From Clostridia bacterium (lineage in GTDB: Bacteria > Bacillota > Clostridia > Christensenellales > DTU072), in NCBI GenBank assembly GCA_045601385.1, contig JAZRZM010000049.1, positions 5,874-69,873 of the forward strand: a stretch of DNA of 64,000 nucleotides, given 5' to 3'. Under the pieces are notes generated by a model. The model worked only from the letters and a program-made list of their open reading frames with translations. It was not told the DNA's origin and searched no databases. Shown one piece after another: positions 1,893-57,163 of the stretch; positions within the stretch are counted from its first letter, which is position 1; each line of letters begins with the position of its first letter. The position numbers and the translations under genes are program-made.

Positions 1893-2002
1893 CAATCGAA
1901 GACGGTTTTTCTTTTGCGCATCATGTAAAGGAGAAACCGACTTTTCATATAGAAGACGTTATTCCGAACGATTATTTACGGAAGACGTCAAAGGAGAAAA
2001 CT

Positions 2003-3028: not shown

Positions 3029-3067
3029 TCCGTTTTGAAAAAGCATAATCGGAGGTAATTTTTACCG

Positions 3068-4675: not shown

Positions 4676-4898
4676 CACGCCTCTTTACGTACGCAAAAAT
4701 ATTTTAATAACACAATATAAACTTCGATTGTTACCTTTTGATAAAAGCGGATATATAATCGGAGTTTTTTGCGTACTTTCGCGAAAACGCTCTCGTAGTG
4801 GACCGCCACAACTTCGCTTGTTTTCATTAAAATACGAAATAAAAAGACAAAAAAAGACGTTTTTTAAGGAATACGATCTTTTATACTTATGGTCGTAT

Positions 4899-5672: not shown

Positions 5673-5905
5673 AGGAATCTGCCGAATTAAAACGCTTAAA
5701 GCGCGTTATCCTCGCCGATAACCTGCGTATCCCGAACGGGATGACCGACATGTTGAAAAACGATTTAATCGCGCTCCTCGACGGCTATTTTGATTTGCAA
5801 AAAGAGTCCGTTCATCTCGATTTGTCCGTGTCCGAAGACGGCGCGTACAAAATCGAATGGAAAGCGACGGCAAACGCGCTCAAAACGTTCAGGAGCGTTC
5901 AATAA
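5669..5905 (+). CDS. minE: cell division topological specificity factor MinE
   Basis: ATG 5669 overlaps the minD stop (ATGA), with AAGGTGG upstream. It is 78 aa with an MinE-like LKRLKRVILADNLRIPNGMTDMLKNDLIALLDGYFDL core. Confidence 0.7.
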   Translation: MKESAELKRLKRVILADNLRIPNGMTDMLKNDLIALLDGYFDLQKESVHLDLSVSEDGAYKIEWKATANALKTFRSVQ

Positions 5906-5942
5906 AAAAAAGCGAATTTTGTAATAAATTCGCTTTTTTTTT
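5904..5942. terminator. bidirectional rho-independent terminator between minE and the convergent operon
   Basis: A-run, then stem GCGAATTT (5912-5919) / AAATTCGC (5926-5933) with a 6-nt loop, then a T-run 5934-5942. Confidence 0.8.
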
Positions 5943-5955
5943 ACTTATATGCGTT

Positions 5956-8733
5956 TTATTGTAAATCCTTGACGCGCAGAACAGGCGCGACGCCGCCGCC
6001 GGTCAGAAAGACGCTGAACGATTTATTGGCGCGCCCCATGTGTTTTACGCCGTACACCGACGAACTGAAAAAGCAACTCGGCGAGCGTAGCCAGTACCAT
6101 CCCGTTTGATCGTACAAGCCGCCTTCATCACGGTATGCGCCTTGACACTGTGCGTAGGGCGTCGTTTCTTTGATACGTTCGGCGTCATAGATGGCGGCGT
6201 GCTCGAAGACGTATTGCGGATCGGTTACTTCGTATTCGCTGAAAAACCAGACTTTGTCGCGAGTTACTTCCTGCGTTTGCTCGTTATCCGCAAAGCGGTT
6301 TTCTCCTTCGTTCCAGAAAGACGTGTTTTCATAGGGGTTCGTTGATTCTGCGTCGTTGATCAGCGTCGTGGGCAGAATTTTTTCCTGTTGTTCCTTGTTA
6401 AAAGCGGTGTTGTAGAATGTATCGTTAAGCCACTTACGAATGGTGCTGTAATAATAATTGTTGGCAAAAACGTCTTTTACGATGTCGGGATTATCGTTAT
6501 AGCGGTCGCCGTCCGATCTTTCTTCGCACGTATCCTGGAAAGAGCGACTGTCGAGAATCAGTTGGGCGACCATTATGGCAGTATTATTATCCTTATCGGC
6601 TGTTTTGACCGCCCATTTTATCGGATCGAATCGGAACCAGTAGACCTGCTCGGTTTCGTAGCCGTTTTCGTATTGATAACTATTATCGGCGGAAGAGGAC
6701 GTTTGCGTCGTCTTCGGGCGGTATTGCGTAAAGTACACGCCGCGGTATTTGTCTTGATTATATTTGATGTCGATATACCACATGTATTCGACGTCGTTTT
6801 CCCCGTCGATATAGTAGTCGTAAGACGTCCATTTTTTCGCGTCTCCGTCTTTCGGCAAGTCGCCCGCGAGTCTGTTCAATTCGTCCGTTATATCGGTGCT
6901 TTCGACCACCGACTGCGGATACATGCCGAAGCAGATAAAGTCGCCTTGCTGATAATACGTCAGTTTTTCATGACATTTTTTGCAAACAAAATCACAGTCC
7001 ACGTCGTGATCGGACGTGTTGCAAACGGTGCAAACGCAGTTTTCGTACCGGTGAACGTACCGATTGCAGTTTTGGCAAAAGCAGTTTTTGTCGAGTTCGT
7101 GAACGCTGTAATCGCAGACGCGGCATTCGCAGCGGAAGAAAGAGTGCGCTTCCTCGTGACAGACGGTGCAAACGCAGTCTTCGTCGGGTGTGTGCGCGGT
7201 CAGACCGCATTTAAGGCAAATACAGTTTTTATTCGGTGTGTGACAGGTATATCCGCATTCCGAGCATACGCAACCGACAAAAGAATGGACGTATTGTTTG
7301 CAGGTGGTGCAATAGCAGTCGTCTTCCACGGTATGGAAAGAGCGGTCGCATTCGGAGCAGTAGCAGTGATTGTCTATCGAGTGATGCGTCTCTCCGCAGT
7401 TGTAGCAACGGCAGTTACGATCAACGATATGGGCGCTTTCTCCGCAGACTATACAAATACAGTCGTCGTTCGGCGTGTGATTTTGCGCGCCGCATACGGT
7501 ACATTTGCAGCCGTCATAGGTGTGTATCGTTTCGTAACAAACGACGCATTCGCAGTGTTCGTTGAGCGTGTGTTGCGTGGTACGGCATTTTTTACAAACG
7601 CAATTATCGTTCAGTGTGTGAACCGTTTGACGACATTTTGTGCAAACACAGTTTTCGTCCGTTGTATGTTCGGTCAGACCGCAATGAAGACAAACGCAGT
7701 CTACCATCGTATGACAGGTCGAGCCGCAACGGAGGCAAATGCAATTCAGGTTAAGTTCGTGTATGTGTTTTTGGCAAACGGAACAATAGCAGGAGTCGTC
7801 GAGGACGTGGGTAGAATAGTCGCATCGGGTGCATTCGCAGTCGACAAGATTGTGACAAATAAGACCGCAACGGAGACACTCGCAGTTTTTATCCAATTCG
7901 TGCATGTTCGGTTTGCACCGTGCCGAGATGTAAAGGACTTCGCTTTCCGACGCGAGCGTGTAGTGGAAGACGGGTTCGGACGATACTTTTTCTTCTCCGA
8001 TGTACCAGCCGTCGAAGTAATCCTCACTTCCCGTATAGTCGAACGTCAATTCTTCGCCGACTTTGTAATATGCCGTTTTGTTGCCGAAAATGCAAAAACC
8101 GTCCCTTACCACGACGTTTTTTGCCATCACGTTGAGTGAAATGGGGTAGTTTCCCCACACGTCCTGCACGGTGGCGGTACATTCGCCTTCTTCGTCCGCG
8201 TCCCAGTCAAGCACGTTCTTGACGTATGCTTTCATGACGCTTCCGTCCGTATAAGAAACAAAATACGGTATTTCCGCTTCGACAGCCGAACAGCCGAGAC
8301 AAACGCTCGATTTCCCGGGAACGAATTTATCGACCGTTTTTTTGTTCGCCGAGGCGTAAAGATTGTTTTTGTTATATATTGTCGCGGTGTTGTACGAAAA
8401 AGAAATCAGTCTGCCGCCGTCGTCAAAAACGCAAATGATGCTTTTGTACGGGTTTGCCGACTTACCGCCGTTTGACCATGTCTGATAATAAATAAGACTG
8501 TCCATGCCGTCGAACGTCTTTTGGCTTTCGCACGAATTACCCAGAATCTTTTTGACGGCAACTTGCGTCATCCCCAGTTCTACTTTATCTGTTTTTGCAG
8601 AACGGAAAGGGGAAGTGAAGAAGCCGCCGAGAAAGAGCCCTGCGGCGAGCAATACGAACGCGGCGACGCAGGATACGACGACAACGATTGTCTTTTTGTT
8701 TTGTTTTTTTCTGTTTTTTTTGTTTTTGGACAT
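5956..8733 (-). CDS. membrane-anchored surface protein: Lys-rich N-terminus + TM, Listeria-Bacteroides-type repeat, about 20x Cys3-His tandem array, C-terminal WYWLRSP module
   Basis: ATG at 8733 (MSKNKKNRKK...) has GGAGG about 11 nt upstream. TM segment is TIVVVVSCVAAFVLLAAGLFLGGFF. YFDGWYIGEEKV matches the Flg_new/InlB-B-repeat motif. The Cys/His repeat array covers residues 302-612 of the track ORF. The C-terminus (VWFFSEYEV ... GWYWLRSP ... GVAPVLRV) resembles the module I recall as DUF6273. Confidence 0.8.
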   Translation of the reverse strand: MSKNKKNRKKQNKKTIVVVVSCVAAFVLLAAGLFLGGFFTSPFRSAKTDKVELGMTQVAVKKILGNSCESQKTFDGMDSLIYYQTWSNGGKSANPYKSIICVFDDGGRLISFSYNTATIYNKNNLYASANKKTVDKFVPGKSSVCLGCSAVEAEIPYFVSYTDGSVMKAYVKNVLDWDADEEGECTATVQDVWGNYPISLNVMAKNVVVRDGFCIFGNKTAYYKVGEELTFDYTGSEDYFDGWYIGEEKVSSEPVFHYTLASESEVLYISARCKPNMHELDKNCECLRCGLICHNLVDCECTRCDYSTHVLDDSCYCSVCQKHIHELNLNCICLRCGSTCHTMVDCVCLHCGLTEHTTDENCVCTKCRQTVHTLNDNCVCKKCRTTQHTLNEHCECVVCYETIHTYDGCKCTVCGAQNHTPNDDCICIVCGESAHIVDRNCRCYNCGETHHSIDNHCYCSECDRSFHTVEDDCYCTTCKQYVHSFVGCVCSECGYTCHTPNKNCICLKCGLTAHTPDEDCVCTVCHEEAHSFFRCECRVCDYSVHELDKNCFCQNCNRYVHRYENCVCTVCNTSDHDVDCDFVCKKCHEKLTYYQQGDFICFGMYPQSVVESTDITDELNRLAGDLPKDGDAKKWTSYDYYIDGENDVEYMWYIDIKYNQDKYRGVYFTQYRPKTTQTSSSADNSYQYENGYETEQVYWFRFDPIKWAVKTADKDNNTAIMVAQLILDSRSFQDTCEERSDGDRYNDNPDIVKDVFANNYYYSTIRKWLNDTFYNTAFNKEQQEKILPTTLINDAESTNPYENTSFWNEGENRFADNEQTQEVTRDKVWFFSEYEVTDPQYVFEHAAIYDAERIKETTPYAQCQGAYRDEGGLYDQTGWYWLRSPSCFFSSSVYGVKHMGRANKSFSVFLTGGGVAPVLRVKDLQ
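6970..7902 (-). repeat. in-frame coding tandem repeat, 45-48 nt period, encoding C-x-C-x2-C-x4-H units (19 clear + 1 degenerate)
   Basis: The first Cys of each unit falls at track residues 308, 323, 339, 355, 370, 386, 402, 418, 433, 449, 465, 481, 497, 512, 528, 544, 559, 575, 590 and 604. Spacing is 15-16 aa except 14 aa before the degenerate last unit. The units are diverged at nucleotide level, but Cys and His positions are invariant. Confidence 0.9.
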
Positions 8734-8755
8734 TGTCCTGCTACCTCCGTACTTT

Positions 8756-10611: not shown

Positions 10612-10612
10612 T

Positions 10613-11566: not shown

Positions 11567-11684
11567 AAAACATAACCTCCAAAATCGAATTCGAGTTTTA
11601 TTCGCGAAAATAATTGAAAAAACTCTATATATATGATACACTATTATTTGTAAAAAGTAAATAAAAAGGAACGAATATACCCGT

Positions 11685-12482: not shown

Positions 12483-12516
12483 AAATATTTCGATTAAAAA
12501 AAGGAGTTATAAAAAA

Positions 12517-13467: not shown

Positions 13468-13488
13468 AAGAAAAAAAAGGAAAGAACT

Positions 13489-35336: not shown

Positions 35337-35450
35337 ATCACTGCCGTAAGGCAATATAACTGCCGCAGGCAATATCACTGCCGCAAGGCAATATCACTGC
35401 CGTAAGGCAATATCACTCGCCGCAAGGCGAATATCGCTTCCCGAACGGCG
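35329..35450. repeat. array of 5-6 direct 18-21-bp units, each containing a short palindrome/mini-hairpin
   Basis: Units begin at 35341, 35360, 35378, 35397 and 35416: CTGCCGTAAGGCAATATAA / CTGCCGCAGGCAATATCA / CTGCCGCAAGGCAATATCA / CTGCCGTAAGGCAATATCA / CTCGCCGCAAGGCGAATATCG. A degenerate unit lies on each side. Stem TGCC/GGCA closes GTAA or GCAA (GNRA-type) loops. Confidence 0.85.
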
Positions 35451-39818: not shown

Positions 39819-40682
39819 TTACTTGCCAAAAGAAGCGAACGCACTGCAACCGCACGGAAGAACGAGCCCGTCTTCGCACGGCAAACCGATTTCGTCCGCG
39901 TCGGTAACGTGCGGCGTATCGCGGAATACGATATCGAGGATGTTTTTCATAACGGTCGGTTGAAGTCCCGTCGTGTAAGAATTGATTAAAAAGAATAAAG
40001 GGGTATCCGAAACGACTTGTTTGGTTAGCGAAACGAGGTCAAATATCTTTTCTTCCAGCTTCCACATTTCACCTTTCGGACCTCTGCCGTACGCAGGGGG
40101 ATCCATCAGAACCGCGTCGTAAAACTTGCCGCGGCGCATTTCCCGTTCGACGAATTTTACGCAGTCGTCTACGATAAATCGGGCGTTTGTCAAGTCGGCG
40201 GAAGAGAGTTCGGCGTTTCTCTTTGCCATTTCGCACATGGCTTTTGCGGCGTCTACGTGGCACACGCTCGCACCGGCTTTCAGGCAGGCGACCGTCGCAC
40301 CGCCGGTGTAGCCGAAGAGGTTGAGGACGCGTATGGGGCGGTCGGCTTTCTTGATGAGGTCGGTCATTCGCGCCCAGTTGACGGCTTGCTCGGGGAAAAT
40401 ACCGATGTGCTTGAAGTTCATCAGTCGGAGTTCAAAAGTAAGATCGCGCCAGTGGACGAGAAAATTATCTTTGACGGGAACGAATTTTTGCCATTCGCCG
40501 CCCCCTTTACTGCTCCTTTTATAAACCGCGCTCAGTTCGCGATAGTGTTCCATATCGCAGGCAGGCTTCCAAATAACCTGCGGATCGGGACGTAAAAAGG
40601 TATACCCGGCGATTTTTTCGAGTTTTTGTCCGTCTCCCGTCGTAATCAGTTTGTAGTCTTTCCATTCTTCGTTGATTTTCAT
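39819..40682 (-). CDS. class I SAM-dependent methyltransferase (RlmI/RlmK-like core)
   Basis: SAM motif VLNLFGYTGGATVA and the DPPAYGRGPKGE motif (DPPxF/Y-type). The start overlaps the upstream gene's stop (ATGA). Confidence 0.75.
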   Translation of the reverse strand: MKINEEWKDYKLITTGDGQKLEKIAGYTFLRPDPQVIWKPACDMEHYRELSAVYKRSSKGGGEWQKFVPVKDNFLVHWRDLTFELRLMNFKHIGIFPEQAVNWARMTDLIKKADRPIRVLNLFGYTGGATVACLKAGASVCHVDAAKAMCEMAKRNAELSSADLTNARFIVDDCVKFVEREMRRGKFYDAVLMDPPAYGRGPKGEMWKLEEKIFDLVSLTKQVVSDTPLFFLINSYTTGLQPTVMKNILDIVFRDTPHVTDADEIGLPCEDGLVLPCGCSAFASFGK

Positions 40683-43306
40683 GTTCCGATCACCTTTTTC
40701 TCTATTTCCGTTTTTATTTTTTCCCAGTCGGGATATTTGATTTTTTCCAAACGCAAAACCATTCGGTTTGCCGCGACGTAATCGCCGTTTGCCATCAGGT
40801 CTTTGATAAGCGCAAGGATGATAAGACCGATTTCCCGTTGTATTTTATCTCTCTTTTCGATAAAGAAAGGCAAATCGGAGTCGGCGATAAATCCTTCTTC
40901 GCATAAGCCGAACAGACGGTCGATTTCGAGTATTCTTTTTTTCAAATCGGTCGTCGGACTGTCGATGTATCTTCGATAAACGTCCAGGTCGCTCTCCGCT
41001 CTTTTTGCGGTCAGTTTGTACTTGCCCGACAGGTAGGAAAAGTCGAATTCGATATCGTATTGGGCGAGCGTCTTGCGAATCAGATTGTTGCTTGTTTTCA
41101 GATTGTTTACGGCGGAATTGTATTCGTATTCTTTCCAGACAAGAAAAAGCAGTCGATTGCGGTCGATGCCTTCGGGGAAAAGTTGATACAACAAAAACAA
41201 TTCTTTACAGCGTTTTGTTTTCCAATGAATTTCTTTTTTCCCGGCAAGAACGGTCGAGTTTCCGAAAAAGCGGATATAAAGCGGTTCCGTGCCCGCTCCT
41301 TTTTCCGTTTTGTTTTGAATCGTCGCCCGCAAGCGAGCGGTATATTCCGACATGATTTTTTTCTCTTCGGCGGTGGCAAGTATGGTGAGAAAACAACGTG
41401 GGAATATCGCGATAAGGTTTCCGTACCCGTTGTTTTGGGCAGCCAAAAGAATATTATTTACCCGTTCGAGCGTTGTTTCCGACTTATCTTCTTCAAGGGT
41501 TCGGGACAGACTAATCCCTTCGGATAAGAAAGAAAATACGTTCGGACTATTTTGAAACGGTTCTTGCGCCGAAGCGTACGCCGTCGCTTCCGTTTTCTTT
41601 CCTTCAAGCCAGCGGCAAAAAGAGAGTGAAGAGCGCAGCAAAGGCAGAACGGGAGCGTAGTTTATCTTGCAACGTTCGATGTAAAAGCAGATGATGTTTT
41701 CGGCGTATTCGTACCAGCCGATTTCGGCGGCGAGTAAGGAGTGAAGTGCCGCTCTGAAAGCCTGCGTCGGCAGGTTTTCGCAGTCCGATACCGAAAAGGG
41801 CGGCAGAGTTTTTTCGGCGCGTTTTTTTTGCCCATGGCATAGGTCGGTAAGGACGGAAAAGACCTTTTCGGCGTTTGGTTCGCATAAGGGGAGCGCGTCG
41901 CTTTCCTCGGTATTTTGCGTCAAAAAGGGATTGCCGAGTAGGTATTCCCATATTCTTATTTCCGAAAAACGGAAGAAAGGGAAAGCGGCGCGCAGCGTTT
42001 TGAGGTAGGCGGAGCCGAGGTCGTATCGACCGAGAATGGACGCCACGTCCGCCGCCGCTAAAATAAGGTCGAGATAGTGCGGGTTCGACGCGATGTCTTT
42101 ACGCGTCAGCGCCTCTTTGCACCTTTCAAAAAAAGGCGTTTTTTTGGCGAGTTCGAACCGTTCGAGGTAGTTGAGACATGCGTTCAGTTCGGCATATTGC
42201 AAAAAATCGTCGTCGTTGCAAGTGTTTATTTCCAAGCAAAATTCGTCCAGCGTGTGCGCTTTTTGGGAAGATAACTGCCGATAATAGTATATTTTTTTCA
42301 GCGGAGCGGGATAGTCGGATAATGCCGCCGACCGTTCTTTTCCCCATTTCAACAGGGCAAGAATCGGTTTGAGAGAGTCGTTTTCCTCCGGATAGGGTAA
42401 GAGGAGGAGCGTTTCGATTATAAAGGGCATTTTTGCCGTTTGCAATAAAACCTCCGCCGCTTTTTCGACGTAGTTTGCGCGCGTCAGACACAGGGCGTGG
42501 TAAAAGCATTTTTCCGCGTCTCCTTTTTGCAAGCAGTACGCAAGATACTTGTCGTATATCTCTTCGTCCGTTTCGTCCCCGTCCCACTCTGAAAATGCGT
42601 CGTGAAATTCGGGTGCGAAACGAAAAACGTTGCCCGTTCGGAGCATGGCGAAACGATAATTTTTCGCGATGTGACTCAATAAATCCAAAGCGCCGTCATA
42701 AAGCGTGTTGACGAATTCTCCGTCAACGTAGGCGCAACGGGAAATGCGACTTAAAAACCGTTTTTCTTCTTCGCTTAAACCGCTTTGCAAAGTCTCCGCG
42801 TCAAAAGAAAGGGGGGGATCCTGTTCGCAGGAAAGAACCCTCGGAAACATTTTTGCCGGAAGCGCGGAAGCAAAATCGGGACAAACTTCGCTCGAAAAAA
42901 CGATACGGACCGTTTCCGGACAGGAAAGCATCAATAAAAACAGAACGTCTCTGTCGTCCGAATGCAGATTGTCGAGACCGCATATAAAGACAAGAGAACC
43001 GCTTTTAAGGTTCCCGATTATTTCGTTTACGATTACCGGACGGTATTTTTCCCGATTTTTCCGATAGAGCGAAATCAATTCGTTGCGGACGTTTTCTTTC
43101 AGTACGTTTTTATATAAAGATACCGCAAGTCCCTCGACTTCCCATTGCATATTGCAGATAATGCACGAGCCGAAATTGTTTATAAGATCGGGCAGAAAGT
43201 CAAGCGCGGACGGCTTTGTCGGACAAACAAGCAGGACGGACGACTTTGCGGACAAAATCCCGTTTATGATTTTATTGTTTCGCTCTTTCCGCGCTTGAAT
43301 ATCCAT
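40679..43306 (-). CDS. large SARP/BTAD-type transcriptional regulator (helical-repeat middle, C-terminal winged helix + BTAD)
   Basis: C-terminal OmpR/SARP-like wHTH: IRFFGNSTVLAGKKEIHWKTKRCKELFLLYQLFPEGIDRNRLLFLVWKE...NNLKTSNNLIRKTL. A BTAD-like helical domain follows. No Walker A was seen in the N-terminal region. The start is uncertain (M at 43306 preferred; 43324 or 43426 possible). Confidence 0.6.
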   Translation of the reverse strand: MDIQARKERNNKIINGILSAKSSVLLVCPTKPSALDFLPDLINNFGSCIICNMQWEVEGLAVSLYKNVLKENVRNELISLYRKNREKYRPVIVNEIIGNLKSGSLVFICGLDNLHSDDRDVLFLLMLSCPETVRIVFSSEVCPDFASALPAKMFPRVLSCEQDPPLSFDAETLQSGLSEEEKRFLSRISRCAYVDGEFVNTLYDGALDLLSHIAKNYRFAMLRTGNVFRFAPEFHDAFSEWDGDETDEEIYDKYLAYCLQKGDAEKCFYHALCLTRANYVEKAAEVLLQTAKMPFIIETLLLLPYPEENDSLKPILALLKWGKERSAALSDYPAPLKKIYYYRQLSSQKAHTLDEFCLEINTCNDDDFLQYAELNACLNYLERFELAKKTPFFERCKEALTRKDIASNPHYLDLILAAADVASILGRYDLGSAYLKTLRAAFPFFRFSEIRIWEYLLGNPFLTQNTEESDALPLCEPNAEKVFSVLTDLCHGQKKRAEKTLPPFSVSDCENLPTQAFRAALHSLLAAEIGWYEYAENIICFYIERCKINYAPVLPLLRSSLSFCRWLEGKKTEATAYASAQEPFQNSPNVFSFLSEGISLSRTLEEDKSETTLERVNNILLAAQNNGYGNLIAIFPRCFLTILATAEEKKIMSEYTARLRATIQNKTEKGAGTEPLYIRFFGNSTVLAGKKEIHWKTKRCKELFLLYQLFPEGIDRNRLLFLVWKEYEYNSAVNNLKTSNNLIRKTLAQYDIEFDFSYLSGKYKLTAKRAESDLDVYRRYIDSPTTDLKKRILEIDRLFGLCEEGFIADSDLPFFIEKRDKIQREIGLIILALIKDLMANGDYVAANRMVLRLEKIKYPDWEKIKTEIEKKVIGT

Positions 43307-43349
43307 GACAATATGGTAAAACATCGGTAAAATTTTGTCAATGATTCGG

Positions 43350-43493
43350 TTGACTTTTTTGTAAAAAACGTTATAATAAAAATAAAGACACGAAGTCTTA
43401 CGAGGCGGATTCGAAGACCGCCGCAAACAAAGTCCGAAGGCGTATTGTTTCCCGAATAGCGGAGAGCAATGCGCTTTTTTTTACGGGGTAAAA
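43350..43493 (+). promoter_or_regulatory. promoter plus ~110-nt structured leader upstream of the ABC importer
   Basis: TTGACT (43350-43355), 16-nt spacer, TATAAT (43372-43377). The leader contains several mutually exclusive short stems and a hairpin plus T8 run (about 43459-43483) just before the RBS and ATG 43494. Confidence 0.4.
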
Positions 43494-47378: not shown

Positions 47379-50300
47379 ATGAAAAAGTCGAATGCTGTTA
47401 TTTTCGGATTTTTGATTGTGTTCTCGGTGCTGTTTTGCGTACTTTCGGCGGCGTTTTGCGCGTCGGTCGGAGGGGCGAAAGCCGGGTTTATTTATAACGA
47501 TACCGATGTTTTTGCCGTTCGGTCGGCAGAAGATTACGTCGCTTTGAGCGCGCTGAAAGATAAGGATTTTTCGGGCAAAACGATTCGGCTGTACGCCGAT
47601 ATCGACGTGACGAATATCGAATTTACCTTCGGCGACTTCGACGGCGATTTTGACGGCAACGGACACGTTCTTTCGGGCGCGACCAAGAGACTTTTTTCCA
47701 AAATCAAATCAAACGGCAGGATAAACGATCTTATTTTTGCGGACTGTGATCTGACGGACGAATGTGCGCTTTGCACGGTCAATTTCGGCTATGTCGGCGG
47801 CGTCTCGTTGTACGGCGGACAAAACGCGGCGACGGTAAAGGGCGTCGTAGGAGAGAACGCCGGTACCGTAGAATACGTAAGCAGTTTTCTTACCGTTACT
47901 TTTTCGGGTGATACGTTCCGTGCGCTGTGCGGAAAGCAGACTCCGTCCGGCAGTTTGAGCGGCAGCGGTTTTTACGGCTCCGTTCTTTCGACGAAAAGCG
48001 ACGGCGAAGTATCGGTTTTCGCGTTCTGTTCGCAGGAAGGCGGCAGTTCTTCGACGGTGACGGATTGCACGTTTGCCGCCGATGTCGTTTCGGCGGGGGC
48101 GGACGTAACTTTCGGCGTATATAATCAGTACTGTTCCGATTGCGCTGTGCTTTGCGCCTTTGACGCGCCGTCGTTTTCTTTGCGCGGCTACTATGCCGAC
48201 GTGTTCGACTTCGTTTATACCGACGGGACGCTTTCGCAAAAGGTTTCTTACGATTCTTTAAGCGACGAACAAAAAGCCGAGACCGTGACGGTAGCGGACG
48301 CGGGAAATCAACTCCTTTATGCGGACGACGAAGGCTTTGCGAAAAAACGCGTTCTTCTCGATTCTTCTTTCGGGCTGAACGGCGTGTCAGACTGTTATAC
48401 CGCTTTGTTTGAAAAGACGGGGACGACCGAAACGCCCGTTTTCGGCGCGCCGACCGTTCGCGTTTACGACGCCGACAAGCAATACTTTGCCTGTACGCCG
48501 AATAACCTGGGCGACAAACTCGGCGACGGGTTTTTGAAACGGGACGGCGTGTACCCCGTGGTCGCGGACGTCTTGCCCGGGAGAGGAACGCAAGCCGATC
48601 CCTTTGTTATAGAAACGGCCGAAGTTCTGTTCCGCCTCCGTTCCGCGCTTTCTTTCGGCGGAACGGTTTATGTCGAATTATCGGACAATATAGACGTATT
48701 TAGCGCGAATAACGCCGTTTCCTCGCTTTTTTCGCAGGCGGTCTCGACGGCAAACGACCTTTCGGGCGTGCCGACCGTCTGCCTGAATCTGCTCGGAAAC
48801 GGCTATACCGTTTATCCGTGCACGGCGCTGTTTTGCGGCGGCTTTTCGGTGACGGGCGACGACTTTTTAACGACGACTTTCGGCGAAAAATACGGATATG
48901 TGACGGGAGAAACGCAGAAAGCGGTTACGCCCGACGGCGATTTTGACGGCAACGGAACGCAATCCGATCCGTACGTACTCGAAAGCGCGGCGCACCTTGT
49001 TTCTTTTATACAGGACGAAACGAAAAACGCGCCCGATAAATACGCCGTATTCGGTCGACATATCGTCGTCAATTCGCAAAAAAGCCACGGAAACAAACTC
49101 GGTTTGAGCGAAAAAACGCTCCTTTGCGAACTGGACGGATGCGGCTACGGCGTCCTCGGACTTGCCGACGAACCGCTTTTGGGCCAAATCGGCGCGAGCG
49201 GCTGTCTGAAAAACGTTCGTATGGACGTGTACGGAGAACGCAAAACGGACGGTATCGTTTGTCTTGAAAACAGCGGACGTATCGAAAAAGTCCTTCTTGT
49301 CGGCACGCAGTCGGCGGAGGCAGCGTTCGTTTCCGTAAACGGCGGCGCAATCGAAAAATCGGTATGCGAACTGGTCGCCGATTACGCTTTCTTTGCCACC
49401 GATAACGGCGGAACGTGCGCTTACTGTATCAACAACGCGCCCTGCGCGCATTTTTCGGGCGATTCGGACGGAATACGGCAATGTATTTCGATGACGACGC
49501 AACATAAATATCAACTGATAAACGGCGAAATCACGGACGAACGCGAGGCTGCCGATTATATCGCGCTGCAAGAAAACGGCTTTGACGCGGACGTGTTCGC
49601 CTACGAATGCGGTTCGGCAAGTCTGCCCGTTCTGCGTGAAAAAGGCGGCGTGTACAAAACGGAAAACACCGAAGAACTGACCGTGCCCGAAACCGTCGTT
49701 TTCGACGAAACGTATACGTATACGGCGGAAGACTTTACCGACGCGGACGTCGTGTTCGACTTTACCGCGACCGTATCGGGACAGCCTGCGGACGACGCGA
49801 CCATACATAACGCCGGGACGTATACGCTGACTTTCTTCTTTGAAGAAACGACCGATACTTTGCCGCGTAAAGAGACGAGAACGATGACGATTACGAAAAA
49901 ATCGCTCAATTCGCCCACCTTGCAGAATGTCGATTTTGCCGCGCTCAACCTTATCTATACGGGCGCGGGCAGGACTGCCGCCGAGTTGACGCCGAGCGGC
50001 GACGCTTTTGCGACTTTAACAAGCGATTACGGCTTTTCGGCGACTTTTGCCTATACGAAAAATTCTTCTCCGACGACGCCCGAAGACATGATCGGCGCGG
50101 GAGAATACTATCAGACGATGACGGTTTCGTCGCGCAACTATTCGCTTACGCAACAATCCCGTAACAGATTGGTTACGATCGCAAAAAAGACCGTCGTTTT
50201 ACACGTGGACGGAGAAAAAACGACGGAATACGACTCGGACGCGTCGTTCGGCGGCTTTACCGTTTCGGCGGAAACGGTCGGCAGGGACGAAGGCGTCGCG

Positions 50301-53300
50301 ATTTCCGTTTTGATCGGAGACGGCTACGACGACTTTTTCGTCTGTTCGTACCAAAAAGGCGATAACGCCGGCAGCGAATACACCGTTTCGTACGACGTAG
50401 GAAGCATTACGCTCGACGACTATATACTGACGACCGAAGGGGGGCGGACGGGCAGTCTGACCGTCGTAAAAGCCCCGATCGAACAGGGCGACATAGTTTT
50501 CTACGGCGCGACGAAAGGACAAAACGGCGCGTTTGAAAAAGTCTACGACGGTCAAGAAACCACCCTGCTCGCTTCGGGCGTACCGACGGGTGTGACGTGT
50601 TCGTATGAAAATAACGTCGTCAAAAACTACGGCGTTTACAGCGTGAAAGCGATTATCGGCGACGAGAGCGATAACTATATTCCGCTCGAACTGACGGTCA
50701 ACGCTTCCGTTGCGAAAAAACAACTTTCTTTTACGGCAAACGACGTCGAAAAAGAATACGGATACGCGATAAACGCCGCTGATTTTACCTATGTTTACGA
50801 CGGACTGTGCGAAGAAAGTCCGACTTCGGCAGGTTTGTCCGTCACCGCTTTTCCGCAAAATCTGACGGCGGCGCAAGTGCCCGAAAAAGGGACGTACATT
50901 ATCAAAATCACCGTAACGGGCAGTAATCCGAATTATGCCGTCATGACGACGGACGGAGAATTGACTATCACGAAAATTTCGCTGACAAAACTGTTTGAAA
51001 ACAACAAAACGGGGCAAAAGAGCAATTTTGACGACGCGACGGTGACGTATTCGGGCGAAAAATACGTGCGAACAATCGACTGCTTTTCTTCCGAAGAGTA
51101 TCTTGTTTCGTACCGCTATCTGAAAAACGGAGTCGAAGTATCGACAAACGGCGTAACAAACGCCGGAACATACGTCGTGGAAGGGACGGTCACGCCGAAA
51201 AACGACGGGAGCAGTTATAAAGAAACGATCTATACCTGCGCGCTCGTTATCGAGCGGCAAACGACGAAAATCACTTTGTCGAAGACTTCTTACGAGTACC
51301 CGTACGTCGTGGGCGGCGGAACGGACTATCACGACGAAAAATATTTTCCGTATACGACCGATATTCCGACGGGCGGCGTCGTAAACGTGTTTTTCGGATA
51401 CAGCGAAGCCGTACATGCCGGGACGTATATCGATTTTATCACTTATCGGTACGTCGGGGACGAAAACCATTCGGGGTGCGAAGTTTCCGCTACGTTGACG
51501 GTCGCTCCGCTTGCCGCAACGGTTTCCTGGACGCGGGAATACGAATACGAGGCGGAGGGGCTTTATCCGGTGCTTATTTCGGCGACGGACGGAGAGGGTA
51601 ACGCGTATACCGAACTGACCTCGTCGTCGTTCTCGTTTTCGTACGTTGACAAGTTCGGTACGTTTTACGATTTCGGCAAGACGGTGCGCGCCGCAGGCAA
51701 GTATACGATGACGATACGGTGCGACAATACCGACTACGTCCCGACCGAGACGGAGTTTGAAGTGGAAATCGTGCCGATTACCATAGAAATATCTTTCGGC
51801 ACTTCGTCGGAACTGTCTTTTCTGACGTTTACCTACGGTACGACGGGCGAATACAATTACGTCAATCCCGCTACCGGCAAGCCCGCTTCGTATTACATTT
51901 CGGCGGCGGGCGACTTTATCACGTATAAAAACTTCCCCATACCGGGCACGACGGATACGATCGATTTGAGATTCCGCCTGTCGCGGAGCGAGTTTTCGGG
52001 CGGGTACTTTGACGCGGAGACGTACACGCTGTCGGAGAGCCTGTTGGAAATGCCGTCGAGTTTTCGCTTTGTCTTTGCGTCGGGGACGAATAATAAAGTC
52101 ACCGTTTTGCCGAGAGAACTGAAAAACGTCTGGTATCGGCGCGGCAAGGTCGTCAGCGGCGAAGTGACGCTCGATTATATCGCGGCGGCGCAGAACGGGG
52201 ACTTTTCGTGCAAGTTTTTCGACGGAGAGACCGAAGTCGACGCGGCGACGACAAGATACGCCGTCGCTATGCAAAACGATAAACACGTCTCGGCGGATCT
52301 TGTGCACGCGGGGAAATATACCTTGCGCGCGAGCGTCAATAACAAAAACTATTCTCTTGCCGCAAGCAACGCGGTTTTGTCCGTCGTCATACGGAAAGCC
52401 GTCCTGCAAATCACCGTCGCAAAAGATATGAAGGTAAAAGAACGCGAAGTGTTTTCCGATATACGCTATACCTTTTCGCCCGAATTGATCGGGATTGACA
52501 AGGGGAAAGACCTGACCGAATTGGACGGCGCCGTCCTTACCGTTTTGTGCGATTATAACGGAAAAGCGAACGTCGGGGAGACGTTCGGCGTCGGTATCGA
52601 CTTTTCTTCGACCGATTACGACGCCATTGTCGTGGGGTACGGAAAGTTGACCGTCGTCAGCAACGTTTATCCCGAATACGTCCTGGCAAGTCGGACGTTT
52701 ACTTATGACGGTACCTATCATACGCTGTCGGTCGGGACGACGATAGACGGCGTTGCGGTCGCTTATTCTTACGACGGGGACGGGAAGAACGTCGGCAGGA
52801 TCAACGTCGGGACATATCTTGTCACGGCGACGGTCACGTACCCGACGGGCAGAGTGAGTTCGACTTCGGCAAGAATGACGATCAAAAAAGCGACGCCCGT
52901 TATCGACGTCGTACAGAATTACGCCTTGTATCGGGCGGGGGAAGAAACCCTTTTGCGAGACGATATGATTCTTGCGAGCGCGGTTTTTGAAGGAACGGAG
53001 AAAAAGATCCCCGGTCGGTTCACTTTCGGCGAGCCTCGGTCGGCTTTGCAAAACGGCGACAGAACCTACAAAGCAAAGTTTATTCCCGACGATACCGCCA
53101 ATATCGAGACGGTCGATACCGTGTCGGTGCCGATTCGCTCTTTCCGCGTCGATTCGACGATGATCCGATTCAAAAACAAGACGGGTTATTCTCTGACGTC
53201 GGACGGCATTTCCATATCGGAAAGGGTAACGGCGGAATTGGATACCTCGTCGGTGCCGTTCGTCGCGGACAGACTGTTTGCTTATCAGGACGGGCTGAAA

Positions 53301-53819
53301 GTGTCCGAATACGTCTTCCGTAAAGAGGGCGAAGTGACGATCGAGATACGGTTTGACGACGAAACGGCGTACAAAACGGTATGGAAGGTCAACGTCAAGC
53401 AGGAAGAAACGGACGAACCGACAGGCAAGGTAGGCGTCGGCATTCTGTCCCTTACGAGCGTTATGTTCGACGGCGACGTCTGCTACGTCCGTAAAGGCGG
53501 CGGTATTATTAAGTTAAAGCCCGAATACGACGATAAGTGCGAGTTGTATATAAACGGTTCCAAAGTGGGCGGCGGCGGAATGCCCGTGTCCGAAAGGGAT
53601 ACGCGTATCGTCGTGCAAATCAAATACAACCACATCGACGCTTTCCTGAAAGAATATACCGTTCGGGAATGGGTGGAGACGGGAAACGAAGGCGGTTCGA
53701 CCGAAAACGGTGGCGGCGGCTTGCCGACGTACGCGATCGTGCTGATTTCCGTCGGGGGCGGACTTATTCTGCTGCTCGGCTTGTCGTTCCTTATTTTGCG
53801 TAAAAAATTGTTCAGATAA
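47379..53819 (+). CDS. giant cell-surface protein (2146 aa): signal peptide, three FDGNGH/GLUG-like beta-helix modules, many MBG-like Ig repeats, C-terminal TM anchor
   Basis: Signal peptide MKKSNAVIFGFLIVFSVLFCVLSAAFCA. Motifs FGDFDGDFDGNGHVLSG, GTQADPFVIETAEVL and DGDFDGNGTQSDPYVLESAAHL. Repeated ..KVYDG...Y..G.Y.V.. beta-sandwich units fill the middle. C-terminal LPTYAIVLISVGGGLILLLGLSFLILRKK. Confidence 0.85.
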   Translation: MKKSNAVIFGFLIVFSVLFCVLSAAFCASVGGAKAGFIYNDTDVFAVRSAEDYVALSALKDKDFSGKTIRLYADIDVTNIEFTFGDFDGDFDGNGHVLSGATKRLFSKIKSNGRINDLIFADCDLTDECALCTVNFGYVGGVSLYGGQNAATVKGVVGENAGTVEYVSSFLTVTFSGDTFRALCGKQTPSGSLSGSGFYGSVLSTKSDGEVSVFAFCSQEGGSSSTVTDCTFAADVVSAGADVTFGVYNQYCSDCAVLCAFDAPSFSLRGYYADVFDFVYTDGTLSQKVSYDSLSDEQKAETVTVADAGNQLLYADDEGFAKKRVLLDSSFGLNGVSDCYTALFEKTGTTETPVFGAPTVRVYDADKQYFACTPNNLGDKLGDGFLKRDGVYPVVADVLPGRGTQADPFVIETAEVLFRLRSALSFGGTVYVELSDNIDVFSANNAVSSLFSQAVSTANDLSGVPTVCLNLLGNGYTVYPCTALFCGGFSVTGDDFLTTTFGEKYGYVTGETQKAVTPDGDFDGNGTQSDPYVLESAAHLVSFIQDETKNAPDKYAVFGRHIVVNSQKSHGNKLGLSEKTLLCELDGCGYGVLGLADEPLLGQIGASGCLKNVRMDVYGERKTDGIVCLENSGRIEKVLLVGTQSAEAAFVSVNGGAIEKSVCELVADYAFFATDNGGTCAYCINNAPCAHFSGDSDGIRQCISMTTQHKYQLINGEITDEREAADYIALQENGFDADVFAYECGSASLPVLREKGGVYKTENTEELTVPETVVFDETYTYTAEDFTDADVVFDFTATVSGQPADDATIHNAGTYTLTFFFEETTDTLPRKETRTMTITKKSLNSPTLQNVDFAALNLIYTGAGRTAAELTPSGDAFATLTSDYGFSATFAYTKNSSPTTPEDMIGAGEYYQTMTVSSRNYSLTQQSRNRLVTIAKKTVVLHVDGEKTTEYDSDASFGGFTVSAETVGRDEGVAISVLIGDGYDDFFVCSYQKGDNAGSEYTVSYDVGSITLDDYILTTEGGRTGSLTVVKAPIEQGDIVFYGATKGQNGAFEKVYDGQETTLLASGVPTGVTCSYENNVVKNYGVYSVKAIIGDESDNYIPLELTVNASVAKKQLSFTANDVEKEYGYAINAADFTYVYDGLCEESPTSAGLSVTAFPQNLTAAQVPEKGTYIIKITVTGSNPNYAVMTTDGELTITKISLTKLFENNKTGQKSNFDDATVTYSGEKYVRTIDCFSSEEYLVSYRYLKNGVEVSTNGVTNAGTYVVEGTVTPKNDGSSYKETIYTCALVIERQTTKITLSKTSYEYPYVVGGGTDYHDEKYFPYTTDIPTGGVVNVFFGYSEAVHAGTYIDFITYRYVGDENHSGCEVSATLTVAPLAATVSWTREYEYEAEGLYPVLISATDGEGNAYTELTSSSFSFSYVDKFGTFYDFGKTVRAAGKYTMTIRCDNTDYVPTETEFEVEIVPITIEISFGTSSELSFLTFTYGTTGEYNYVNPATGKPASYYISAAGDFITYKNFPIPGTTDTIDLRFRLSRSEFSGGYFDAETYTLSESLLEMPSSFRFVFASGTNNKVTVLPRELKNVWYRRGKVVSGEVTLDYIAAAQNGDFSCKFFDGETEVDAATTRYAVAMQNDKHVSADLVHAGKYTLRASVNNKNYSLAASNAVLSVVIRKAVLQITVAKDMKVKEREVFSDIRYTFSPELIGIDKGKDLTELDGAVLTVLCDYNGKANVGETFGVGIDFSSTDYDAIVVGYGKLTVVSNVYPEYVLASRTFTYDGTYHTLSVGTTIDGVAVAYSYDGDGKNVGRINVGTYLVTATVTYPTGRVSSTSARMTIKKATPVIDVVQNYALYRAGEETLLRDDMILASAVFEGTEKKIPGRFTFGEPRSALQNGDRTYKAKFIPDDTANIETVDTVSVPIRSFRVDSTMIRFKNKTGYSLTSDGISISERVTAELDTSSVPFVADRLFAYQDGLKVSEYVFRKEGEVTIEIRFDDETAYKTVWKVNVKQEETDEPTGKVGVGILSLTSVMFDGDVCYVRKGGGIIKLKPEYDDKCELYINGSKVGGGGMPVSERDTRIVVQIKYNHIDAFLKEYTVREWVETGNEGGSTENGGGGLPTYAIVLISVGGGLILLLGLSFLILRKKLFR

Positions 53820-53842: not shown

Positions 53843-56800
53843 ATGAAAAGAAAACTATTGATTATCTTTGCTACGGTGCTTGTACTCTGTACGGCTATCC
53901 TGTGCGCTTCGTGCGACTTCGATCTCGAAAGCCTGCTCAACGGTCAGAGCGTGCCTTCCGGAGAAAAGCCGTACATCACGGGGCTACGCGTGACGAAAGC
54001 CGCCGCGGGCTTTGAAGACAGTTTCGAGTACACCTACAACAGTCAAGGGACTAACCCGATGGCTGTCGGCGCGGACGAGATCTACTATCTCATTATCGAA
54101 TACAACAACCCTGCTGAGTACGCTATCAGCAGCGTCAAGGTCAACAATATCACCTACCGCGATAATCAGTTCGTTTCGTCGCTGTCGGACAAAACGCAGA
54201 CCTGTTTGCAGTTTGCCACCGACAAGACGGTCAAGACGGAGACTTTGCAATACACCGTCAACAGCGCGTTCTTTACCGCAAACGGTACGACCGATAAGAT
54301 CAAGTGGGGCGAGGGCGTCGAACATTCCGTTTCGGTGGCGGTTCACCCGTATTTTACCTTAAAACTCAATTATATGAACGCCGATAACCGCGCCGGAAAA
54401 TCGGTCGAGAACAAAATCGACGAGCGTACCAAAGTCTACTACCGTACCGAAATGAACAACTATATTGCGGCTCCCGACTACGAGGGCGAGACGACCGTCC
54501 CGACAAAAGCGGGCGGATGGGTTTTTTCGGGTTGGTATACCGATCCGCGCGGACCGGAGTACGGAAAATTGATTTTGGATACCGACGTCTATTCGTTCTG
54601 GTGCGATATGACTTTGTACGCTTACTACGAAAGAATGTACGAAGTCAAAATCGAACCGCTTTTGACCGAAATCGAACACGTCTACAACAAGGGCGGGCAG
54701 GAATTTACGAAGAAGTTTTCTTCGGGCGCCGTCCTGTCGGGAAGAGAATTCGGTAAAGGCGTCGAAAACGCCACCCATAACTACTCCTTGGAAATACCCG
54801 ACACCATTATGGTGGAGACCTTGACCGTCACGCAGAACGTGCGTAACGACGGCATGCCTATGTTTTCCGTCAGCGTCACGGGGAACGAATATCCCGTCGT
54901 GCGGCTCGAAAACAACATTTTTAAGGGCTATAACACCCTTACCGCCGCGACCTGCGGCAAGTACGTCGAGTCGATCGGTTACGGCGCGTTCCGCGGTTGT
55001 ACCAAAATGGCGACGCTCTCGTTCTCGGACGGAAGCGTCTTAAAAAGAATAGGCGACTACGCTTTCGAGAGTACCGAAGTACTCGGTGCGTCTTCGCCGT
55101 TTACCCTGCCTGCGACGGTCGAGTATCTCGGCTTGTGCGCCTTCCGTTACAGCGGTTGGGGCTTGACGAGAAACAGCGGCAGCGGTCAGGGCGGCGAATC
55201 GGTTTTGCAGATCCGCCCCACTTGGAAATATATCGGTTACAAATGTTTTTCCGATACGAAGTTCAGACAGATCGTCTTCAAAGCCGGTTGCCACTTTGAC
55301 AGTCAGATCGGCGCGGCGGAAGGAAAGAACGACGAAAGCGCGCTTGACGAAGACGGCATTTCGGGCAGCAACACTTTCCGCGTCGGGCAAAACCGTATCG
55401 GCGCGCGTCTTTTTGAGCAGTGCTATAACATAAGCAACGTCGTCTTTGAAAGTAACGGCAGCGACGGACTCAATATCATCCCCGATTACTGCTTCGACGC
55501 CGGTTCCTGGTACGACGATCCGAAAAGACCGTTCGCCTGTATCGGTTATATTTCTTTCGGCGAGGGGCTGGAAGTAATCGGCGAAAGAGCGTTCAATTAT
55601 CAGGTCAAGATTCCCGAACTTCCTTTGCCGAAGTCCCTTAAAGACGTCGGCAGATACGCTTTCTATAACTGTATCGCCGTCACCAATCTGAACTTCGAGC
55701 GCGTCACCTTGCAGGACATCGCGCGTAAAGGTACCGTCAGCCTCGCTTTGACCAACGACAGCCGTCTGGAAATCATCCGCGGTGGCGCGTTCGCCAACCT
55801 CGCCGGTATCGACGTCGTGTATATCACTTCGCAGTACTTCCGCTTGTACGGAAACGGTCCTTTCCAGGGCTGTCCCCGTCTGAAATGTATCATTTTCAAT
55901 AATATTCAGGACGTCTTGCCCACGGGATTCAAGTCCTCCAAAGAAAAATTCGGCTATGCGGTCGAAAGCGGAGAAATCAACGACGACGAAATTCTGCTCG
56001 GACATAAGCAGTCCGATTTTACCTACGGCACGGCGGCTTCGGGCGAACTGACGAGCGACGAAGAAGATATGGACACGACGGGAGACGAATTTGCCATCAC
56101 CTATTCCAACCCCATCCGCATCTTCTGCCCCTCCGTCAGTACAGACGCGTTGAAAAAAGATATGCTGATCGGTAAAGAGGTGACCGCGGGCAGTCAGTCT
56201 TCGGGCACGAAATCCTTTAACAGTCAGGTTTTTGTCCACCCGCTTGAAAATATGTATAACTTCAAATACGTCGCCGGCGGCGAAGAGCAGAACGTAACCG
56301 TCGCCGTGCAGGAAATATACAAGTCCAGCAACGGACAGCCGACAAGTACGAGAATCGGTTACAGCCTCGTCTATTGGGACGTGCGTTCGACGGAAATCGT
56401 CTTGCCGACGGCAGGCGACCTCAACTTGCAAAGCGAAATCGTCGAAATCGCGGCGTACGCTATCCCGACCAGTTGCGTTTATCTGAAAATCCCGTCCTGC
56501 TACACCCGTATCGAACACGACGCCTTTAACAGTTGTCGCAGTCTTTCGACCGTCGAATTCGAGGATATAAACACCCTTGCTTATATCGGACAGTACGCCT
56601 TTATGGGGACTTCGATCAGGACGTTTACCGGCGGTACTTCCTTAAAGGTCATCGGCGACTACGCCTTTAAGAGTTGCAAGAGCCTCATATGGGTTGACTT
56701 GAAAAACACTTTGATCGAGAACAAATACGACGGACGTATGGGCGCGTATTATCAATATAAATACGAATACGAATTGGACGACTATGACGAAGATTACAGC

Positions 56801-57163
56801 AACTCCCTCGGAGCAAGTTGCTTCTCGGCGTGTAAGAATCTGAAATGGATCTACCTGCCGAAGAATATCGCCCGACTCAATTCGAGTACTTTCGCCGGGT
56901 GCAGTTCTCTCGATACCGTCATTATTCCGACGTCAAACGTCAGCGAAGTCATCAGCGGCAACGATAAAGACAGGTTCTACGAGACGGGACAAGCGGCGGC
57001 GGTGTATCCGTCGGGAAAACTCAATCAGATTGCCATCTACATTCACTTCCGTATGGATACCGTCCACAAGACTCTGCTCGCGCCCGAGTTTATAAGGGAT
57101 CAGGCGTACCACACCTTCGATCCCGATACCGGCAGCGGCATACCCGACAAACCCAACGCATAA
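53843..57163 (+). CDS. surface lipoprotein with Listeria-Bacteroides repeat and BspA-type leucine-rich repeats (1106 aa)
   Basis: AAGGAG RBS. Lipobox LCTAILCASC. Flg_new-type motif GGWVFSGWYTDPRG. Many LRR_5-like units (IGYGAFRGC..L..L.F, IGDYAFES.., IGERAFNY.., IGQYAFMGT.., IGDYAFKSCKSL). Confidence 0.85.
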   Translation: MKRKLLIIFATVLVLCTAILCASCDFDLESLLNGQSVPSGEKPYITGLRVTKAAAGFEDSFEYTYNSQGTNPMAVGADEIYYLIIEYNNPAEYAISSVKVNNITYRDNQFVSSLSDKTQTCLQFATDKTVKTETLQYTVNSAFFTANGTTDKIKWGEGVEHSVSVAVHPYFTLKLNYMNADNRAGKSVENKIDERTKVYYRTEMNNYIAAPDYEGETTVPTKAGGWVFSGWYTDPRGPEYGKLILDTDVYSFWCDMTLYAYYERMYEVKIEPLLTEIEHVYNKGGQEFTKKFSSGAVLSGREFGKGVENATHNYSLEIPDTIMVETLTVTQNVRNDGMPMFSVSVTGNEYPVVRLENNIFKGYNTLTAATCGKYVESIGYGAFRGCTKMATLSFSDGSVLKRIGDYAFESTEVLGASSPFTLPATVEYLGLCAFRYSGWGLTRNSGSGQGGESVLQIRPTWKYIGYKCFSDTKFRQIVFKAGCHFDSQIGAAEGKNDESALDEDGISGSNTFRVGQNRIGARLFEQCYNISNVVFESNGSDGLNIIPDYCFDAGSWYDDPKRPFACIGYISFGEGLEVIGERAFNYQVKIPELPLPKSLKDVGRYAFYNCIAVTNLNFERVTLQDIARKGTVSLALTNDSRLEIIRGGAFANLAGIDVVYITSQYFRLYGNGPFQGCPRLKCIIFNNIQDVLPTGFKSSKEKFGYAVESGEINDDEILLGHKQSDFTYGTAASGELTSDEEDMDTTGDEFAITYSNPIRIFCPSVSTDALKKDMLIGKEVTAGSQSSGTKSFNSQVFVHPLENMYNFKYVAGGEEQNVTVAVQEIYKSSNGQPTSTRIGYSLVYWDVRSTEIVLPTAGDLNLQSEIVEIAAYAIPTSCVYLKIPSCYTRIEHDAFNSCRSLSTVEFEDINTLAYIGQYAFMGTSIRTFTGGTSLKVIGDYAFKSCKSLIWVDLKNTLIENKYDGRMGAYYQYKYEYELDDYDEDYSNSLGASCFSACKNLKWIYLPKNIARLNSSTFAGCSSLDTVIIPTSNVSEVISGNDKDRFYETGQAAAVYPSGKLNQIAIYIHFRMDTVHKTLLAPEFIRDQAYHTFDPDTGSGIPDKPNA

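Follow-up and report, generated by a model that had tools for sequence, protein, structure and literature searches.

Tandem Cys3His repeats in a predicted surface protein of a gut-type Clostridia bacterium and their putative role as a zinc-stabilised stalk

Small Cys/His zinc modules are regarded as intracellular, and extracellular proteins usually rely on disulfides. The stalk domains known from surface adhesins have immunoglobulin (Ig)-like or other beta-sandwich folds of 70–100 amino acids (aa). Here we analyse a 64,000-nucleotide stretch of DNA (hereafter the window) from a Clostridia bacterium (Christensenellales, DTU072; GenBank assembly GCA_045601385.1, contig JAZRZM010000049.1, positions 5,874 to 69,873 of the forward strand), in which a minus-strand gene encodes a 925-aa protein with about 20 tandem units of 15–16 aa that each contain three Cys and one His (hereafter Cys3His units). 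The repeat unites two known ideas, i.e. the small Cys/His zinc module and the tandem stalk of a surface adhesin. All coordinates below refer to the window.

Several described systems resemble one or other part of this protein: (i) the CCHC zinc knuckle of retroviruses (PF00098; e.g. HIV-1 NCp7); (ii) the small t antigen of SV40, whose crystal structure has a C-x-C-x2-C triad with all three Cys on one Zn, together with an upstream Cys103 or His122 (PMC1945078); (iii) the fibrillar adhesins and Periscope proteins, for which the concept of a stalk domain has been described (PMC8201768, PMC9210967); and (iv) proteins with a DUF6273 domain, which in the IgA peptidase of Thomasclavelia ramosa makes up the N-terminal domain (residues 31–322; PMC12402451) and whose fold in phage receptor-binding proteins has been described as C-type-lectin-like and as a target of diversity-generating retroelements (DGRs; PMC10743442). 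The likeness to the last group concerns the C-terminal head of the 925-aa protein only and not its repeat. The array itself comprises the following features.

7900..7917, minus strand: leading half-site Cys273-x4-His278 (residues 273–278), five residues before the first Cys triad, read in the sequence.
7006..7899, minus strand: 19 tandem 15/16-aa units of the form linker(4-5)-C-x-C-x2-C-x4-H (residues 279–576), from the regular expression, shuffle test, AlphaFold2 model and sequence profile.
6970..7005, minus strand: degenerate 20th unit, DVD-C-DFV-C-KK-C-H (residues 577–588), read in the sequence.

A search for C.C..C.{4}H gave 19 tandem matches, all in one frame (residues 284–576, window 7006..7884), and no further match in any of the six reading frames of the window. 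When the residues of the array were shuffled 20,000 times, the motif count had a mean of 0.2 and never exceeded 4. The four ligand positions (C1, C2, C3 and His) are invariant in all 19 units, with the spacing C2-x2-C3-x4-H exact in each of them. The variable part is the linker from His to the next Cys, which is x4 at 6 junctions (unit length 15 aa) and x5 at 12 (16 aa). A few units contain a fourth Cys, and the degenerate 20th unit has its candidate ligands at C580-x3-C584-x2-C587-H588. The array is acidic overall (44 Asp + Glu vs 24 Lys + Arg), and its 311 residues include 63 Cys and 27 His, compared with 12 Cys and 3 His in the remaining 614 residues of the protein.

We judge the Cys3His units to be old because Tandem Repeats Finder detects no DNA repeat in the array (6970–7902) and because between-unit identity averages only 53% for core nucleotides and 15% for non-ligand residues. 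In this respect the array differs from Periscope proteins, whose repeats are near-identical in DNA. A preliminary description of this DNA, made from the sequence alone, had reported 19 clean and one degenerate copy of 15–16 aa, heavily diverged in a way that spoke against recent slippage, and both the regular expression and direct reading agree with the copy count, as the identities and the Tandem Repeats Finder result do with the divergence. Its location of the array in the window (6970..7902) also holds and corresponds to residues 278–588; its residue numbers (302–612) do not, being shifted by 24 through counting from an upstream TTG at 8805. Similarly, its estimate of ∼60 Cys is close to our count, whereas that of ∼40 His is too high.

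The repeat could be assigned to no described family, as had been proposed. No Pfam or NCBIfam family covers the unit in searches with the whole protein, the array alone, a 74-aa piece or ten relatives; phmmer against all PDB sequences gave no match; the relatives are called ‘hypothetical protein’ in every naming source; and a literature search for CXCXXC repeats, zinc-knuckle surface proteins and extracellular zinc fingers returned no description of a Cys3His repeat. Likewise, when we looked for a bacterial metallothionein (BmtA/SmtA type), no metallothionein family of any kind appeared in the Pfam scans at E ≤ 10. For structure prediction, we aligned non-overlapping four-unit blocks from this array and from the arrays of relatives. 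The resulting AlphaFold2 model, which spans four units together with the leading half-site, has a mean predicted local distance difference test score (pLDDT) of 86 and contains only short or isolated beta bridges according to DSSP (i.e. at linker positions 2–3, at the residue after C1 together with C2, and three residues after C3), with no helix. Foldseek found no significant match of this model in the PDB (best E 3.8) or in BFVD (best E 0.014). The weak, non-significant PDB list consists mostly of Zn-binding proteins (TFIIH, HDAC6 ZnF-UBP, L37e, PRORP and a RanBP2-type finger). The best non-significant viral neighbour, BFVD entry A0A8S5PQU4 (84 columns), is a 379-aa podovirus protein annotated as ‘NOA36’ and might be a case of a comparable Cys-rich repeat in a phage.

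A likeness to the retroviral knuckle, which the preliminary description had overlooked, lies in the segment C2-x2-C3-G-x3-H-x4/5-C1': read from the second Cys of each unit, the array comes close to the nucleocapsid spacing, including its Gly. In a search of PDB sequences with a repeat profile of type A1 (32 columns, built on double units), the HIV-1 nucleocapsid CCHC knuckles were the best match, aligned Cys-to-Cys and His-to-His (whole-sequence E 0.011). The differences are that two thirds of the array junctions are x5 rather than x4, that knuckles in this register would stand back to back with one residue between them, that base-stacking aromatic residues are not conserved (mostly T/L/S after C2 and mostly T/E/S after His), and that the context is predicted to be extracellular and not nucleic-acid binding. 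PF00098 was absent from the Pfam results for the whole protein, the isolated array and the 74-aa piece, with matches up to E 10 admitted. With polyomavirus small t the array shares an identical Cys triad, and each of its 19 triads, including the first (H278), has a His 4–5 residues upstream. By contrast, small t has two sites set in alpha helices, with Cys at the helix N-termini, and no tandem array, whereas the four-unit model is free of helix; small t was not found among the sequence or fold matches of the repeat in the PDB.

We then compared the array with its relatives. Profile A1, searched against 1.84 billion representative proteins, matched 179 proteins at E ≤ 1e-3, of which 36 reach E ≤ 1e-10. 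The 925-aa protein ranks first with 18 matching stretches, and the runner-up (P0015 in our numbering of relatives) has 11 units. A two-unit DNA pattern, scanned in one genome per species across 185,579 species, gave at least 80 loci. The genuine arrays among them, recognised after translation, have 2–9 units and belong mostly to Christensenellales, Oscillospiraceae, Ruminococcus and unclassified Clostridia that live in the guts of humans and ruminants; Bacteroidales, Actinomycetes, Armatimonadota and Acidobacteriia contribute a few. At all other loci, GC-rich repetitive DNA matched the pattern by chance. A search with the array alone in a word-indexed collection of 5.8 billion proteins came back empty and missed even the protein's own entry, so that we give this negative no weight. 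In relatives from many genomes the Cys and His columns are kept, as expected from the preliminary description. The Cys3His repeat is real, rare and uncurated, and the copy number found here is by far the largest known for it.

The relatives fall into two classes. Members of Class S, which are lipoproteins and surface proteins of gut Clostridia, have signal peptides or lipoprotein signals; the lipobox is, for instance, LVAC in P0003 and P0006 but LSAC in P0017 and P0025. The array of many such proteins follows B-repeats and directly precedes a DUF6273 module, while in others it adjoins BspA-type leucine-rich repeats. Their copy number is 1 (P0003 and P0005), 2, 3, 4, 7, 8 or 11, compared with 19–20 in the 925-aa protein, and in the two single-unit proteins the remaining stalk is a long run of B-repeats. 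Comparison of these relatives shows the array as a variable-number module, apparently used as a spacer. Variable copy number and a position directly upstream of DUF6273 in many Class S relatives are the behaviour of a stalk module. As in fibrillar adhesins and Periscope proteins, the array lies between an anchor and a distal putative binding domain and differs in copy number among relatives; unlike the stalks of fibrillar adhesins, it is made of 15-aa modules of a putative metal-binding type. Two further arrangements were seen among the relatives. In P0014 and P0022, C-x-C-x2-C-x4-H alternates with C-x2-C-x3-C-x-H in a regular two-unit super-repeat. Four DUF6273 proteins (P0008, P0011, P0012 and P0013) have a different tandem repeat of ∼37 aa, H-x13-C-x12-C-x2-C (e.g. 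ATCTEEGSYDEVVYCSVCGEELSRE), on the C-terminal side of the head, apparently another kind of Cys3His stalk module in DUF6273 proteins.

Class C (87 of 148 relatives) consists of short proteins (median 233 aa) without a signal peptide, 58 of which start their array within 25 residues of Met1, typically as M-x3-C-x4-H-x-W-x-G-C-x-C-x2-C-G-x2-R-D-E-x-H-x-W. Their repeats (P0023, P0027–P0029, P0035 and ∼80 others, from several phyla) are 16–19 aa long with the form C-x-C-x2-C-G-x2-R-D-E-x-H-x-W, and no Pfam family covers them.

The preliminary description had left open whether the units are metal knuckles or a disulfide-laddered stalk. Our results favour metal knuckles over a disulfide ladder because the four ligand positions are kept while the rest of the unit varies with little constraint, because each unit has an odd number of Cys (three) and an invariant His, which fit a tetrahedral S3N site better than disulfides, and because the module also occurs in relatives without a signal peptide, where it has to fold in the reducing cytoplasm. 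In addition, the window encodes an anaerobic ribonucleotide reductase (NrdD), and in an anaerobic host reduced thiols outside the cell are plausible. The first of the two proposals in that description is therefore retained, with metal binding as the predicted property, and the second is disfavoured.

To see which ligands might share a site, we inspected the ends of 241 non-redundant arrays. A His stands 3–7 residues before the first triad in 93% of them, and a Cys 1–5 residues before this leading His in 63% (here C273-x4-H278). A two-ligand element follows the last His in 58%: 90 arrays have C-x2-[CH] at this place and 49 have C-x-[CH], which is usually the G-x-Y-C-R-H sequence that joins the array to DUF6273. 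P0003 and P0005, with one unit each, read C-x2-H-x5-C-x-C-x2-C with no downstream His. These half-sites bring the ligand total close to 4(n+1), as expected if sites draw ligands from two adjacent units, and suggest that the metal sites straddle the 15/16-aa unit boundaries and staple neighbouring units together. The candidate ligand sets are (i) C2, C3, H and C1' of the following unit, as in retroviral knuckles; (ii) the previous His with C1, C2 and C3, as in small t; (iii) C1, C2, C3 and H within a unit; and (iv) interleaved sets, either C3, H, C1' and C2' or C1, H, C2' and C3'. In a co-loss analysis, C1 is retained in 93% of cases when both flanking His are present, 39% with the previous His only, 51% with its own His only and 2% with neither. 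The number of sites is ∼20 whichever partition applies.

The other parts of the gene and protein are as follows.

5956..8733, minus strand: whole coding sequence (925 aa plus stop), from open reading frame (ORF) call and translation; a predicted type II (N-in, C-out) membrane-anchored surface protein.
8744..8748, minus strand: Shine–Dalgarno-like GGAGG, read in the sequence, 10 nt 5' of the ATG at 8733 that starts the 925-aa protein.
8614..8733, minus strand: residues 1–40, a Lys/Arg-rich tail (MSKNKKNRKKQNKK) and a hydrophobic segment taken as a signal-anchor, from hydropathy and the positive-inside rule.
8068..8613, minus strand: residues 41–222, N-terminal ectodomain of unassigned function, with a weak BamE match below the Pfam cut-off (E 0.005).
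7918..8067, minus strand: residues 223–272, a divergent InlB B-repeat or Listeria–Bacteroides-like beta module, from weak BLASTP matches.
5959..6969, minus strand: residues 589–925, C-terminal head module with DUF6273 and WYWLRSP near its end, from Pfam PF19789, AlphaFold2 and Foldseek.

The domain order is thus transmembrane anchor, ectodomain, B-repeat-like module, Cys3His array and DUF6273 head. The only hydrophobic stretch lies at about residues 15–40 (hydropathy windows exceed 1.6 only at 12–25 onwards) and, together with the Lys/Arg-rich tail, agrees with the Lys-rich N-terminus and single transmembrane helix described before; we take it for a signal-anchor that leaves most of the protein on the outer side. 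The earlier placement of the array outside the cytoplasm is likewise supported by this predicted anchor and by the lipoprotein signal peptides of relatives with the same layout. The ectodomain is shared with P0082 (27% identity over 264 columns, E 6e-20), which has only three Cys3His units. Residues 223–272 weakly match B-repeat units of P0003, P0005, P0009 and P0042, all of which carry PF09479/PF18998 (BLASTP E 1e-3 to 0.1; 30–48% identity over 31–65 columns), and a Pfam scan of these residues gave no PF09479/PF18998 match at E ≤ 10. Of the two modules said to flank the array, the WYWLRSP module is therefore confirmed as DUF6273, whereas the Listeria–Bacteroides repeat has weak BLASTP matches (E ∼1e-3 at best) and no Pfam match in its favour and remains a tentative assignment.

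The head matches PF19789 at residues 757–921 (55.1 bits vs a cut-off of 23.5, E 1.1e-14), and the entire 338-aa module is conserved in relatives. Its AlphaFold2 model has a predicted template modelling score (pTM) of 0.82, and the sole significant fold match in the PDB is the T. ramosa IgA peptidase 9qa6 (Foldseek E 1.2e-5, probability 1.0, 272 columns). A DGR acting on this gene was considered and rejected: blastn of 5901–6500 against the 64-kb window gave no second (template-repeat) copy. There is no reverse transcriptase among the ten flanking ORFs (1889–15270), the part of the window that was scanned for one.

Taken together, we consider it fairly probable that the array of ∼20 units is a zinc-stabilised stalk outside the membrane that presents the DUF6273 head. 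The N-terminal signal-anchor would hold the protein in the membrane; outside would follow a small ectodomain, one B-repeat-like module and then the Cys3His rod, in which each module would hold one structural Zn(II). The chain of ∼20 modules would be a semi-rigid rod, bringing the head to the far side of the cell wall, so that the C-terminal DUF6273 domain would be displayed there and could bind a putative ligand. Metal binding, zinc as the metal, rigidity, the spacer role and ligand binding by the head are all presumed components of this model. A bolder version, which we put forward tentatively as a possible but somewhat doubtful one, is that the array represents a new fold class, an extracellular ‘zinc-stapled rod’ in which each Zn is shared by neighbouring 15-aa repeats to give a continuous interlocked rod rather than beads on a string, and which in strictly anaerobic gut Clostridia would take the place that disulfides or Ig-like stalk domains have in aerobes. 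Several points weigh against the zinc-stabilised stalk: AlphaFold2 models no metals, and the four-unit alignment is shallow and partly made of the protein's own repeats; the retroviral-knuckle match is one at the level of the motif (per-stretch E 1.9–3.9, with no Pfam zf-CCHC match); the register tests (array ends and C1 co-loss) do not discriminate among ligand partitions; the orientation of the signal-anchor is taken from the positive-inside rule and from homologues; and we know of no experimentally defined ligand of DUF6273.

Other explanations of the array have to be weighed against this evidence. The array might be a store, buffer or scavenger of metals (Zn, Cu, Ni, Co or toxic metals) similar to a metallothionein or zincophore. 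Its abundance of Cys and His, its ∼20 sites per molecule, which would amount to a sizeable sink, and the occurrence of C-x-C-x2-C in the metallothionein literature speak for such a role. We nevertheless regard it as unlikely, because a strictly periodic ratio of 3 Cys to 1 His at constant spacing, together with an ordered model of high confidence, points to structural sites, and because a module that varies in number among relatives, sometimes down to one unit, makes little sense for storage; nor is there a Pfam metallothionein match or an adjoining gene for metal transport or regulation. It is quite unlikely, too, that the array is a metal-free Cys-rich stalk held by a disulfide ladder or other thiol chemistry, with His serving for packing. 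Extracellular Cys-rich repeats are commonly disulfide-bonded in other organisms, and the fourth Cys of a few units would suit this explanation, whereas the odd Cys count, the invariant His, the sharing of the unit with relatives that have no signal peptide, the strict-anaerobe type of the host (NrdD) and the weak sequence and fold resemblances, which are mostly to zinc-binding proteins, argue against it.

The knuckle-like spacing raises the question of whether the array might bind extracellular DNA or RNA at the surface through CCHC knuckles of the nucleocapsid or CNBP type. The best PDB profile matches are indeed nucleocapsid knuckles, whose C-x2-C-G-x3-H-x4-C spacing resembles that of the array; given that the base-stacking aromatics are not conserved, that the array is net acidic and that Pfam zf-CCHC does not match, we think this very improbable. 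Least probable of all, to the point of being barely credible, is the idea that the array serves as a surface wire, redox-active or iron-binding, with Fe sites like those of rubredoxin or with a thiol redox relay. A designed miniature rubredoxin occurs among the weak PDB sequence matches (E 0.22), but rubredoxin-type sites use four Cys while one ligand here is always His, no electron-transfer genes are adjacent, and the array is an interchangeable linker in relatives. A metal sink or a redox-active surface had been suggested in the preliminary description, and our analyses returned nothing in support of either. The zinc-stabilised stalk remains the explanation that we prefer.

The surroundings of the gene contain the following two features.

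5900..5946, no strand assigned: hairpin GCGAATTT-tgtaat-AAATTCGC with a perfect 8-bp stem and flanking A/T runs, from the sequence and a blastn inverted repeat.
35367..35439, minus strand: Gut-1 RNA (Rfam RF01706; 53.9 bits, gathering score 50); the window has no other Rfam family.

The ten flanking ORFs are housekeeping genes, with PAP2, AMP-ligase, MinD and MinE on one side and a GDPD phosphodiesterase and a GH130 enzyme on the other; genes for metal transport, metal regulation or electron transfer were not found among these scanned neighbours. The hairpin lies between the convergent minE and surface-protein genes and probably serves both of them as an intrinsic terminator. A simple terminator scan did not list it, and a promoter/terminator scan gave counts no higher than in shuffled sequence. 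Because the window contains both NrdD and the Gut-1 RNA, we conclude that the host is an anaerobe and probably lives in a gut. Its lineage is barely sampled: a public protein collection holds an identical 925-aa protein as a singleton cluster, and of ten other window proteins looked up among ∼15 billion, seven stand alone in their 90%-identity clusters and three are absent from the collection. Elsewhere in the window, a 2146-aa ORF with a signal-peptide-like N-terminus and no Pfam match (47379..53819, plus strand) is directly followed by a 1106-aa protein that has BspA-type leucine-rich repeats and an N-terminus like that of a lipoprotein (53843..57163, plus strand). These two ORFs form a second cluster of large surface proteins, and neither contains the Cys3His repeat. 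A further ORF of 915 aa (40679..43426, minus strand) matches no Pfam family at E ≤ 1e-5.

In brief, the Cys3His repeat defines a family for curation with 179 representative clusters, which include unstudied small proteins without a signal peptide (M-x3-C-x4-H-x-W-x-G-C-x-C-x2-C). Annotation pipelines miss the module at present, since it has no Pfam or NCBIfam family and the proteins are called ‘hypothetical’. If the proposed stalk is correct, a 15-aa module would be added to the known stalk domains of fibrillar adhesins, and the resulting compact, modular and length-tunable rod would be of possible use in protein engineering. It would also mean that strict anaerobes can use zinc as an extracellular cross-link. 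In the bolder version, that of a zinc-stapled rod, proteins of this kind with their ∼20 Zn per molecule would make the architecture of the cell surface depend on zinc availability in the gut.

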